DNA of 64,000 nucleotides. It comes from Yuukianura sp. NJ FZ-2021. Taxonomy: Eukaryota. Position 1 is the first letter of the stretch; every line of letters begins with the position of its first letter. Positions 21,221 through 25,255 of this stretch are shown here, in pieces. The translations under genes and the position numbers were made by a program. The notes under the pieces are model-generated. The model made no database searches, had not been told where the DNA came from, and was given only the letters and a program-made list of their open reading frames with translations. The DNA is taken from positions 744,001 to 808,000 of the forward strand of contig CM102284.1 of assembly GCA_046563655.1 (NCBI GenBank), read 5' to 3'.

Positions 21221-22989
21221 TCAAAAAATCCGCTTATACCAAGGCTCTGTAAAAAAAAACACGAAAAAGAAAAGTTCAGCAACATAATTCAGAATTTTTT
21301 TTTGAAAATTAATTTTATTAACGCGTTAACACTTGGGTTACTTTTTTTGCCTGGCTGTTGAGCCAGCAGTCTCTGCTCGGCCACCAACTTTTCCATTTCC
21401 CGCAGTTTAGCTTGATGTAATTCCTCCGCTGCGGCTCTCTCGGCGCTAATTTTTAAAAGTTTTTCATTTAGTTGCGCCAGTTCCACTATCTGATCTGCTT
21501 TCAATTTGGCCATTTCCTCATTCGTTTCAACCAACTTGATCTCAAGGTCATCCCGAACTGCCTTCGCTTCAGCCTTAATTTGAGCCGTGTCTCGATTGGC
21601 TTTGTTCAGTTGGCGGTACAATTCAAACGTTTTTTCAAATTCTTCTTTGAGCACGACCAAATACTCTTCGGAAGTGCTTTTATCCCCAATCTTTTTAAAA
21701 CCGTTGAACAGAACAATGCATTCCTCAGCTACTTGACTGAAAATACAAAAAAAATACAGTTTTTACATCAGAATGGAGAAAATTGTCGGAAAATTTCAAA
21801 ACAAATCTTGAATTTCAAAATTCACTTGTGAACATCCAGCAGAGCAGCGTCAGAAAGTCCATTTTCCTTGTTTTGCTCTACAATTTCTTTGAATCTGCGG
21901 TCGTAATTTGTAATTGCCGCGTCTTTGGCCATTTCATGTTGAACAGTAGCGGCAGATTCAAACAAAGTTTTTGTTTCTGGCAACTTTTCAGAAAAAGCTT
22001 TAGCCCAGTTTTTTACCAAAAGCTTCAATTGCTTTCCGTCCACAACTTGACCTCCGATGACCTTTGGCATGAGTTTGTCAGGATTCAAAATGTCAGAGGT
22101 CAACTTTTCCAAATGATCGAGAAACTCGGAATCGATTTTGTTCAAATCAAAATTTCCGTTTCGCGCCAACTCCTGTCCAGGATGCGGCATCAAATAGACT
22201 CCGACAGACGCAAAAGTGTCAAGAATCATCTCATGAACGTACTTGACCTGCGGAGGACTGTCGACCTGCGGGTCAATGTAATCTTTTTTGAAATTTTTGC
22301 CGCCAATTGAAACCTTGTCGTCATAGTAACCAAAAGAGTAGTCGCCATGTTCAAAATCTCGAATCAGAAAAACCAGTTTTTGAAACGGATCGTCTTGAAC
22401 TTCGTCGTCAACAGCCAGACGCGTAAATCCGGCAAAAAATTGCAAAAATTGCAAAATATCTTCGCTAATTTGATTTTTCAAATTGAAAATCAAATGTGAT
22501 GAGAGCAAAGTGCAAAGTCCAAAAATAATTGCATTTTCTTGCGTGGTCGTCTGGTTGTCAAAACTGCCTTGACTGTCTACCAGCAACAGAGCAATTTTTG
22601 ATCCTAGAAAATCCACAAAAAAAATTAAACTTTTTCATAAAAAAAAGTCATTGTTTAACGTTTTCATAAAATTTTGAAACTCTTGTCTTACCGTCAGACT
22701 TTGTGAGAACAAACGGTTCACCCCAAATGAAGATTCCTGTAGTTTCTCGTTCTGATCCAGAACGAAATTTGAAAAAATCTTCGAGCGGTTCACGAATCCA
22801 GTTGGGTTTGCCGCCAGATTTCAAAAAACGAAGAAAAACAGACAGGAGAAAAGATTTCCCTTGACGTAGTGGTCCGCAGACGGAATAAATTGCAACTGGC
22901 AAATCCTCAACATTTTTCAAAATTGTGTTTAAACCTTCCACGTTCAGTTCGTACCCGTCTCCAACTTTGCTGTAAATTTGAACAGCCAT
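21221..22989 (-). CDS. Atlastin/GBP-family (GB1/RHD3) large GTPase copy A, no transmembrane segments, 4 exons
   Basis: G1 GPLRQGKS, G2 RSGSERETTG, G3 DSQG, G4 FLIRD. Helical bundle and coiled coil follow. The tiny last exon gives PGKKKPWYKRIF*. Confidence 0.9.
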
Positions 22990-23571
22990 TTTTGAAATTT
23001 TGGAGCAGAAAATTGACAGATTTCGGACTACACAAAAATCGGTAGAAAGTTGGAAGAATTTCCAAGTTTTTACGTGAGAGTGAATATGGAGGGTAGCGTT
23101 TCGGCTACGTGCAAAATGGTTTTTGCAAATAGCTAATGCCTGCAAACAAAGAAAAAAAAAATTCAATTTTTTATCAAGTTCATGGAAATGGTGGTTTTGT
23201 TACTCATTTTGTCAACACTCGAAGTGCATTCAAATTCAAGTGGACACAGTAAAGCAGAGTTGAATGACTCACGACACCGTTCTGCTGCACCAATCACAAA
23301 ACGAGAAATTGGAAAATCCTAAAGCAAAATGCCGTTTTTGCCGCTATCAGCCTAAAAGCAATTGATCGACGTTTTGCTTCAAGTGTTTGCTTTTCAAAAA
23401 ATGTACATTGCTCAAAAATTTCCATAACGGAGCTAACAGATAAAAAAAATATGATAACTTTTCACAGAATTTGAAAAAAAAAAATTTAAATTGTAACCAT
23501 AGTATTATTATTTATTGCAACGACAAATTTTGAATTTCTACAATTTTGCATGTGATTTTAGTTGGAAGGTT

Positions 23572-23630
23572 TTAAATTCTTTTGTACCATTTTTTCTTCC
23601 TATGATGCTGCGCCGCCGCAGCAGCAGCGG

Positions 23631-23668
<38 letters not shown>

Positions 23669-25255
23669 TTTGCTTCATTTATGCGTCGTTGCTCCGCTGC
23701 TGCAGCTTCCGCTTGCTGCTGCATTAGTAAATTATGAACGCGAATCCGTTCTGCTTCAGCCGCCGCTTCTTGAATCCGCAATTGTTCCATTTGCTGTGCT
23801 AACTGTGCTTCTTGTCTTCGCTTCTCCTCCGCTGCGGCAGCTGCTGCTTGTGCCCTATTCCTATTGGCTGTGTTCAAATTGTGGTAATGTTTGTAATTTC
23901 CCTCCAAAACAACGTGCATAGCGTCAAAATGTTTTGCATAAGCAGCGCTGTCTTTAATTTTTTTGAAATTGGTGAATACAGCCACACATTCTGCCGTCGC
24001 TTTCCTGAAAGTTCAAAGAAAAATATATGTTTTTACGGAAGTAAGAAAAAAGCAAACCAAAGTTAATATAAAATTGAGAAGCTCTAAAATTTTAGTTTCA
24101 AAAGAAAAAAAAACCTGTGAACATTCAAAAGCTGCCTATCAGACCCTCCACTTGGGTAGGACCAAGTGAATTGAATGAGTTTTGGTGCGTGAATTTGAAT
24201 CGCTGCTTGTTTGGCCATTTCATGTTGAATTTCGGAGACGGAGTCAAACAAAGTTTTGGTTTCTGGTAACGTTTGGGAAAAATTTTTAGCCCAATTTGAT
24301 ACCAAAAGCTTTAACAATTTTCCGTCCACGACTTGACCTCCGACGACCTTTGGCACGATGTTCTGCGGATTCAAAATGTCAGAGGTCAACTTCTCCAAAT
24401 GCAAGACAAACTCGGGATCGATTTTGTTCAAATCAAAATTTCCATTTCGCGCCAACTCTTGTCCAGGATGTGGCATCAAATAGACTCCGACAGATGCAAA
24501 AGTACGGATGATCGACTCGTGAACTTTCTTGACCTGCGCGGGACTTTCGACCTGCGGGTCAATGAAATCTTTTTTGTAATTTTTCCCGCCAATTGATACC
24601 GAGTCATTGTAAAATCCAAATGGGTAGTCGCCGTGCTCAAAATCCCGGACGAGAAACATCAGTTTTTGAAACGGATCGTCTTGTGTGGCTTCATCGGAAG
24701 CAAGACGGGCGAAACCCGCGAAAAGTTGAAAAAATTGTAAAATTTCTTCGCTAATTTGATTTTTCAAATTAAAAATCAAGTGAGACGACAGAAGAGAGCA
24801 AAGTCCAAAAGTAATTCCGTTTTCGTCAGTGGTCGTCTGACTGTCAAAAGTTCCTTGACTGTCGACCAACAAAAGAGCAATTTTGGATCCTGGAAATTTT
24901 CAAAAACCATTTTTTGAAAACTTTTTAAAATTTTCATTTTAGTTTTTTAGTTCTTACCATCAGACTTTGTGAGAATGAATGGTTCTCCCCAGATGTAAAT
25001 TCCTGTTGTTTCAGGTTTTGATCCAGACCGAAATTTGAAAAAATCTTCGAGCGGCTCACGAATCCAGTTTGGTTTGCCGCCAGATTTCAAAAATCGGAGA
25101 AAAACGGAGAGGAGAAACGACTTTCCTTGGCGTAATGGTCCACAGACGCTGAGGACCGCAATTGGCAAGTCTTCAACTTTAGCTAAAACAGTGTTGAAAT
25201 CTGCAACGTTCAGTTTGTAAGCATCACCAACTTTACCGTAAATTTGAACAGCCAT
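23572..25255 (-). CDS. Atlastin/GBP-family large GTPase copy B, no transmembrane segments, Ala/Gln-rich tail, 3 exons
   Basis: GPLRQGKS, SGSKPETTG, DSQG, FLVRD. First two introns are at the same positions as in copy A. Ends HHRKKKWYKRI*. Confidence 0.9.
23610..23668. repeat. Imperfect (CAG)n/(GCT)n microsatellite encoding poly-Ala in GTPase copy B
   Basis: gcagcagcagcggcagcagcagcagcagcagcaacagcagcagcagcagc. Confidence 0.9.

Follow-up and report, generated by a model that had tools for sequence, protein, structure and literature searches.

The two genes described here find their best match, in sequence and in fold, among the atlastins (ATL1-3 and Drosophila atl). The genes, A and B, are tandem neighbours on the minus strand of a 64,000-nucleotide (nt) stretch of Yuukianura sp. 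NJ FZ-2021, contig CM102284.1, and the window below means that whole stretch. Like atlastins, they encode a G domain with an arginine in its P-loop and a three-helix bundle that is complete by alignment. Unlike atlastins, they have neither the transmembrane hairpin nor the amphipathic helix that follows it. Their place is taken by a stalk, helical and about 90 residues long, and a short basic-aromatic tail. We argue that this tail may serve as a lipid-free peptide membrane anchor, peripheral and reversible, and we put the probability of this reading at roughly 0.55.

GBPs are the next systems to consider. GBP1, GBP2 and GBP5 belong to the same superfamily; they too are soluble large GTPases, with a long helix at the C-terminus, a polybasic stretch and, at the very end, a membrane anchor. 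The anchor is a CaaX box, which is likewise found in the close relatives of A and B, but not in A and B themselves. According to the available part of the 2024 GBP1 structure paper, it is released or engaged on nucleotide-driven dimerisation, and among dynamin-like proteins only the GBPs are stated to depend on isoprenylation to bind membranes (PMC11746146). The A/B family resembles the GBPs in its mode of anchoring, not in sequence.

Arthropods also have atlastin homologues without transmembrane segments. One that has been studied is BmAtlastin-n, a protein of 770 amino acids (aa) with an uncharacterised C-terminal domain and no transmembrane segment. The accessible part of the report on it describes it as cytoplasmic, and as restricting Bombyx mori nucleopolyhedrovirus (BmNPV) and a microsporidian (PMC4926086). 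BmAtlastin-n and the silkworm Atlastin3 and Atlastin4 share with A and B an atlastin-like G domain, a helical or coiled-coil region and the lack of transmembrane segments, and they too are lineage-specific arthropod paralogues. The same part of that report mentions neither a CaaX box nor a basic-aromatic tail in BmAtlastin-n, and the likeness to A and B is one of description only (PMC4926086). A and B fit this loosely described class. Transmembrane-less homologues are thus already known, and what is new is the apparent swap of anchors on a conserved terminal mini-exon. In our literature searches, which covered the open-access literature only, we came across no account of prenylated atlastin-type proteins and none of a tail of the A/B type.

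The tail can also be compared with MinD. Both have, at the extreme C-terminus, a motif of about 8-10 residues in which aromatic/aliphatic pairs alternate with a Lys/Arg pair. The membrane-targeting sequence of MinD binds poorly as a single copy and becomes effective once nucleotide has driven dimerisation. MinD is from an unrelated protein family and another domain of life; we compare by analogy only, and the tail is a putative membrane binder.

The locus was read on the minus strand (21100-25450) and its exons were joined computationally. Gene A has 4 exons (22989-21221) and encodes 498 aa, and gene B has 3 exons (25255-23572) and encodes 501 aa. Both frames are intact in the joined translations, and all five introns are GT-AG introns of 68-110 nt. 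Translation from the first in-frame ATG starts MAVQIY... in each gene, which agrees with database relatives. The features are these.

22692-22989, minus: A exon 1, with the start codon, P-loop GPLRQGKS and switch I RETTGI
21826-22603, minus: A exon 2, with the remaining G domain (DSQG, RD) and helices 1-2 of the three-helix bundle
21342-21736, minus: A exon 3, with bundle helix 3 and the helical stalk, ending ...QQPGKK and base 1 of a split Lys codon, then the donor GTAACC
21221-21246, minus: A terminal mini-exon of 26 nt, (K)PWYKRIF and stop, preceded by a 95-nt phase-1 intron; homologues in metagenome loci L001, L021, L015 and L002
21144-21149, minus: AATAAA hexamer of gene A, 72 nt past the stop
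24958-25255, minus: B exon 1, with the start codon, P-loop and switch I
24115-24889, minus: B exon 2, with the G domain and the first bundle helices
23572-24004, minus: B exon 3, with bundle helix 3, an Ala/Gln/Glu-rich helical stalk, the tail and the stop, all in a single exon
23618-23668, minus: trinucleotide repeat of 17 copies, coding for the poly-Ala run of the B stalk
23575-23598, minus: B tail KKKWYKRI, within exon 3
23511-23516, minus: AATAAA hexamer of gene B, 56 nt past the stop

The two proteins are 63% identical (317/502 aligned positions). Identity falls from 84% in exon 1 through about 73% in exon 2 to about 30% in the stalk. A tblastn search of the window with both proteins matched these two copies only.

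Assignment of the G domain and bundle

Pfam PF02263 (GBP) matches exons 1 and 2 of both genes with E-values from 3e-12 to 1.3e-25. A exon 1 aligns to the structures of atlastin-3 and atlastin-1 (E 6e-15), and the alignment brings both the P-loop GxxRxGKS, arginine included, and the switch-I ETTGI into register. A exon 2 aligns to atlastin-1 residues 139-376 (131 bits, E 4.4e-37), and its DSQG and RD align to DTQG and RD. An earlier reading of the bare sequence, the original prediction, held that both genes keep the atlastin G motifs, P-loop arginine included, and that they are an offshoot of the atlastins. These matches bear out the first claim, and the second agrees with a comparison in which atlastin-1 is far ahead of the GBPs and RNF112 in bits.

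The same prediction credited the genes with part of the helical bundle. The bundle is there, but "part of" was wrong. A exon 2 extends to atlastin-1 residue 376. A exon 3 alone matches residues 393-438 weakly (E 0.19), and an exon-3 profile of six sequences (A, B and four metagenome relatives) matches residues 393-451 with an E-value of 1.2e-5. The match stops where, we assume, the first transmembrane segment of atlastin-1 would begin. Since the profile reaches this far, the bundle of A and B is, by alignment, complete up to the expected start of that segment.

Fold comparison was made with a relative. The AlphaFold2 model of Folsomia protein P0004 (mean predicted local distance difference test, pLDDT, 81.7) has a G domain, a shorter helix at 311-326, bundle helices at 336-366 and 373-394, a third bundle helix that starts at 399 and extends as far as 513, and a disordered end. 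The best Foldseek match to this model is the cytosolic domain of atlastin-1 (residues 1-446; E 1.7e-33, template modelling score about 0.7 on the target). RNF112 (1.9e-22) and the GBPs (1e-20 and weaker) are weaker matches. Judged by sequence and predicted fold, A and B are GBP-superfamily GTPases with an atlastin-type G domain and bundle.

Other assignments can be ruled out. A true GBP is excluded by the low similarity of A exon 2 to GBP5 (31.6 bits, the best GBP) and GBP1 (about 24 bits), a range of 24-32 bits against 131 for atlastin-1. It is further excluded by the absence of a CaaX box from A and B and by GBP_C (PF02841), which matched 0 of the 6 exon translations at E<=0.01. RNF112 and Sey1/RHD3 are excluded as well: A and B start 38 residues before the P-loop, PF02263 is their sole Pfam match, and RNF112 scores 35.5 bits against the 131 of atlastin-1. 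Exon 3 of either gene is without any Pfam match at E<=0.01.

A canonical atlastin is ruled out by the absence of the transmembrane hairpin from both proteins. Hydrophobicity was scored by Kyte-Doolittle in 19-residue windows with a cut-off of 1.6. No 19-mer of A reaches the cut-off. The sole stretch of B that does (residues 469-490) is the poly-Ala run from the 17-copy trinucleotide repeat. We reject it as a transmembrane segment, as it is the product of a repeat and lies within what is predicted to be an unbroken helix, and as alanine by itself has too little hydrophobicity for membrane insertion. Downstream of both tails there is a stop codon and then an AATAAA hexamer. The expectation that neither protein has a transmembrane segment is upheld, with the B repeat as the only qualifying stretch.

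The AlphaFold2 model of B exon 3 (pLDDT 91) has a helix at 2-16 and then one helix, 19-142, that runs through the tail. The tail is helical and continuous with the stalk in this model, with a pLDDT of 82-89 at the end. A predicted complex of two A exon-3 copies scored 0.01, which is no answer and counts neither way on dimerisation. A search of the ESM Atlas with B exon 3 gave no usable match.

A phmmer search with A exon 2 against 1.84 billion representatives gave 1632 protein matches at E<=0.001, of which 67 have E<=1e-30. The nearest database match, P0008, is 59% identical; the A and B proteins themselves are absent from the searched databases. Among named relatives, the 'atlastin' of Folsomia candida is 38-42% identical, and 'Atlastin-1' of Halotydeus destructor and a protein of Medioppia subpectinata are 37-40% identical to P0008. 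A crude classifier sorted 158 homologues by their C-termini and motifs. At least two hydrophobic segments, the canonical atlastin-like state, were found in 24, one segment in 21, a tail-anchor-like end in 14, a CaaX box in 12 and a basic-hydrophobic tail in 4. Another 46 were classed as other, which includes read-through artefacts, 29 were too short and 8 had no G4 motif.

Two trees were made. The FastTree tree has 119 rows. Its starting set was the 158 homologues with A, B and the L001 open reading frame (ORF), from which proteins were dropped that were above 900 or below 330 aa, lacked the G4 motif or were N-terminally truncated. The IQ-TREE quick tree has 45 hand-picked rows, 1 of 46 having been dropped for want of a G4 motif. 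A and B group together with support of 100 in both trees, and P0008 is their sister (98 in FastTree, 99 in IQ-TREE). In the IQ-TREE tree these three are nested in a 23-row clade (99) with Folsomia paralogues and the CaaX forms L001, P0007 and P0022. There are no hairpin-bearing proteins in that clade. On balance, A and B would seem to be tandem paralogues of a transmembrane-less clade of atlastin-type GTPases of soil microarthropods, with their closest named homologues in the springtail Folsomia candida.

B has a longer branch than A (0.26 vs 0.057). Its second bundle helix (24117-24210, minus), in the stretch of about 28 residues ahead of the exon 2/3 junction, has diverged much more from A and from relatives than other parts of exon 2, and remains in frame. 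The diverged end of exon 2 and the poly-Ala repeat suggest that B may be under relaxed or directional selection.

Some relatives have unusual architectures. P0005 of Folsomia candida (858 aa) has a protein kinase domain (PF07714/PF00069) N-terminal to its atlastin-like GTPase, which recalls signalling or immune proteins. In P0009, P0010, P0012 and P0017 (1083-1751 aa) the query matches 2-5 separate stretches each. This suggests either several GBP-type G domains per chain or fused gene models.

The terminal mini-exon and the CaaX boxes of relatives

The original prediction placed the motif of gene A on a tiny separate exon at 21246-21221. Comparison with relatives supports this. A metagenome scan with the family alignment gave 80 loci, and L001, L002, L015, L021 and L037 were examined by hand for mini-exons. 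With exon-3 sequences as tblastn queries, full-length stalk matches were found in L001, L015, L021 and L037 only, and L037 ends before the 3' end of its gene. In each of the four hand-examined loci whose 3' end is covered, the coding sequence of the stalk ends at a phase-1 intron, and a mini-exon of a few codons with a CaaX box comes next.

L001, 1682-1752: CaaX mini-exon, CTIL
L021, about 960-1050: CaaX mini-exon, CAIL
L015, about 1195-1280: CaaX mini-exon, CSIL
L002, 1608-1700: CaaX mini-exon, CVIS

The donors in these relatives are of the type G/GTAA or C/GTGAGT. The last intron of A has the same phase as in the four relatives, and its position is at most 4 alignment columns away. The phase-1 intron and mini-exon that these relatives carry at the same point support the predicted 26-nt last exon of A. 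Some close relatives have basic residues ahead of the CaaX box, and a further database protein, P0165, also has such a box.

No CaaX-like ending was found downstream of A exon 3 or of the B stop. When the 80 metagenome loci were scanned with the pattern W[YHF][KR][KR][ILVFM], no A/B-type tail adjoining a GTPase gene was found. Among the four relatives with recovered C-termini, the A/B tail is lineage-specific as far as their sequences go. An expectation that it would be conserved in paralogues fails here, for these four end in CaaX instead. Since their CaaX mini-exons occupy the position of the tail, this implies that the tail of the window lineage replaced an ancestral lipid anchor.

It must be noted that database proteins P0001 and P0002 stop at the site of this intron in L021 and L002, their close relatives. 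Their annotated C-termini look like read-through artefacts of gene callers. Because both end at the mini-exon intron, prenylated atlastin-type proteins are probably under-reported in database annotation. The mini-exon is missed by automated gene callers, and CaaX boxes on atlastin-type domains bear on the claim that GBPs are unique in this respect.

The tail as a proposed anchor and its alternatives

Protein A ends ...GKKKPWYKRIF, across its last intron, and protein B ends ...RKKKWYKRI. Both translations thus close on K-K-x-W-Y-K-R-I, as had been claimed for them, and A has an extra F. A search of all six frames of the window for the pattern W[YF][KR][KR][ILVF] gives 3 matches, two of them the tails of A and B.

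The history of the two copies can be read from their substitutions. By the Nei-Gojobori method, the ratio of non-synonymous to synonymous divergence (dN/dS) between the G domains is 0.22, with a dS of 0.71. The duplication is therefore old and both copies are constrained. The stalk is saturated, with a proportion of non-synonymous differences (pN) of 0.55. The two tails share 7 of their 8 aligned residues, 5 of these 7 with different codons in A and B (AAA/AAG, AAG/AAA, TAT/TAC, AAG/AAA and CGG/AGA). Because most of the identical residues differ in codon while the stalk is saturated, the tail fits selection on the peptide better than recent gene conversion.

We argue that the tail is a candidate peripheral, reversible anchor because it occupies the slot of the CaaX lipid-anchor mini-exon of its relatives. 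The proposed mechanism is as follows. Helix 3 of the bundle would continue from the atlastin-type G domain and bundle into the stalk of about 90 residues, which would end in the short terminal anchor. In the window lineage a lipid-free polybasic-aromatic tail (KKK-P-WYKRIF or KKK-WYKRI) would stand in place of the CaaX box. Its Lys and Arg residues would draw it to membranes with acidic lipids, where Trp, Tyr, Ile and Phe would insert at the interface. These four residues have a strong preference for the membrane interface. A single tail would bind weakly; once GTP has driven the G domains to dimerise, two tails would be brought together and their avidity would rise. Nucleotide-driven dimerisation of the G domain is established for both atlastins and GBPs, according to the available part of one report (PMC11746146). 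Membrane binding would thereby be nucleotide-dependent and reversible, as it is with MinD. Without a hairpin, tethering or coating of membranes is likelier than fusion.

A similar tail is found elsewhere in the family. The 'atlastin-like' protein P0133 of the gall midge Contarinia nasturtii has the C-terminus KKRRPWHKRIFG, which is nearly identical to the A/B tail. Of its relatives, P0156 ends RRGFLKKIFG, P0158 has a polybasic stretch and then a hydrophobic segment, and others end differently. The midge group is far from A and B in both trees. An approximately unbiased test rejects a clade of A, B, P0133 and P0156 (log-likelihood difference 233, p 3.5e-40), for a group that was named after the tree had been seen and with a P0133 that has no N-terminus. 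Since the midge protein belongs to a different clade, the basic-aromatic tail has, on these trees, arisen at least twice or moved as a module. The ending of P0156 closely resembles the membrane-targeting sequence of Escherichia coli MinD, given as KGFLKRLFGG in the accessible part of the source (PMC5471200).

Several observations weigh against an anchor. The hydrophobic moment of the tails is not distinctive. For 11-mers it lies at percentile 62 (A) and 85 (B) of the 11-mers of the family, and 4812/10000 and 2241/10000 shuffles reach the observed value. For 8-mers the percentiles are 91 (A) and 96.5 (B), with 2438/10000 and 1484/10000 shuffles. The amphipathic-helix signal that had been claimed is therefore statistically unremarkable. 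The hydrophobic part of the tail is only about 7 residues long, and A has a proline just upstream of it. The KKK/KRR cluster could be a nuclear import signal. None of the four close relatives with recovered C-termini has the tail, and all four have CaaX. The record of P0008, the sister of A and B, ends after exon 2, which places its C-terminus outside the tail comparison. BmAtlastin-n, the one studied transmembrane-less homologue, is reported as cytoplasmic in the part of its description used here (PMC4926086). A canonical coiled coil in the stalk is unsupported too: in a heptad-periodicity test, 2921/5000 shuffles (A) and 3464/5000 (B) reached the observed power, and "long helix" is the safer term for what is predicted. 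The two stalks do differ, at about 30% identity, as the original prediction said, but the coiled coil it gave to A is not borne out.

What survives of that prediction is best stated in parts. For a soluble, reversibly membrane-binding offshoot of the atlastins there are the missing hairpin, the apparent selection on the tail and its place in the CaaX slot; the undistinctive amphipathic signal speaks against it. The idea of a MinD-style terminal helix gains from the residue likeness between midge RGFLKKIFG and MinD and from the helical tail of the B model, and it loses by the same hydrophobic moments. Other short C-terminal signals were considered. The tails do not fit the consensus patterns of di-lysine retrieval to the endoplasmic reticulum, the peroxisomal targeting signal PTS1, PDZ ligands or the LC3-interacting region.

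One can imagine instead that the tail is a nuclear import or protein-docking signal, and that A and B are soluble nuclear or cytosolic GTPases. We consider this unlikely. It would account for the clusters of 3-4 Lys/Arg in the tails, and the PPPPKKRRP of P0133 resembles the consensus of a classical import signal. BmAtlastin-n is cytoplasmic, with no membrane anchor described in the part of the report at hand (PMC4926086), and plant GBP-like proteins are described, in the part of another source that we use, as working in nuclear condensates (PMC9005921). However, an import signal need not be at the extreme C-terminus, and it leaves the conserved hydrophobics of W-Y/H-K-R-I-F unexplained. Nor does it explain why the tail shares its mini-exon slot with CaaX lipid anchors, or why 14/158 family proteins have tail-anchor-like hydrophobic ends at that place.

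More unlikely is a tail that is a roleless leftover of CaaX loss, with both proteins soluble and the A/B similarity due to descent or gene conversion. The relatives have CaaX and A and B do not, which speaks for it. B is also evolving fast, with its branch of 0.26 against 0.057, its repeat-derived poly-Ala and its diverged exon-2 end. Yet with a dS of 0.71 and stalks about 30% identical, a tail kept at 7/8 residues with 5 synonymous codon differences speaks against both drift and recent conversion. A near-identical tail in an unrelated clade is also hard to square with a leftover.

The least probable scenario is that the last intron of A is retained, always or at times, and that A ends in a read-through tail of about 20 residues from 21342-21289: that frame is open for 17 more codons and has a basic-hydrophobic end (...ALIKLIFKKKF), but the donor, acceptor, phase and position of the intron match four relatives, splicing recreates the B tail exactly with synonymous differences, and the motif so formed is rare in the window. 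The intron-retained frame (21342-21289, minus) may itself have arisen by chance, the intron being rich in A/T, or may belong to an alternative isoform.

If the tail is a peptide anchor, the swap from a lipid signal in A and B is a natural experiment on the membrane targeting of large GTPases. The tail would also be a compact candidate for a eukaryotic membrane-targeting tag.

A possible defence role and the rest of the window

A defence role for the A/B family is possible but doubtful. The case rests on analogy: the restriction reported for BmAtlastin-n, the GBP-like design, the tandem copies with a fast-evolving stalk and the kinase fusion in Folsomia. The genes offer a lead on whether transmembrane-less arthropod atlastin homologues do GBP-like work. 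A broader scenario, which is unlikely as a whole, would make arthropod atlastin-type GTPases a GBP-like, fast-diversifying family that coats or tethers membranes. A swappable terminal mini-exon (CaaX, tail anchor or MinD-like peptide) would set the mode of anchoring, and A and B would be independent of lipidation. Gall midges would have reached the same solution independently, possibly under pressure from pathogens on prenylated defence GTPases. A Pfam scan of the neighbouring ORFs found a cytidylyltransferase, a WD40 protein and a KH-domain protein, none of them immune-related.

Other parts of the window have features of their own. Two tandem sets of long ORFs on the plus strand, at 57214-59345 and 60314-63292, encode clearly paralogous proteins with hydrophobic segments; the pieces 57214-58476, 58458-59342 and 61554-62768 have no Pfam match at E<=0.001. 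At 53490-54851 (plus) there is an open frame of 453 aa, rich in Gln, Leu, Glu and Asn and without a Pfam match, that contains a large internal duplication with long, near-verbatim repeats. An ORF at 30200-30736 (plus) has Ala/Trp-rich and Cys/Ser-rich low-complexity repeats. It coincides with a rise in G+C content (0.43) at 30-32 kb, which is probably simple-sequence DNA.

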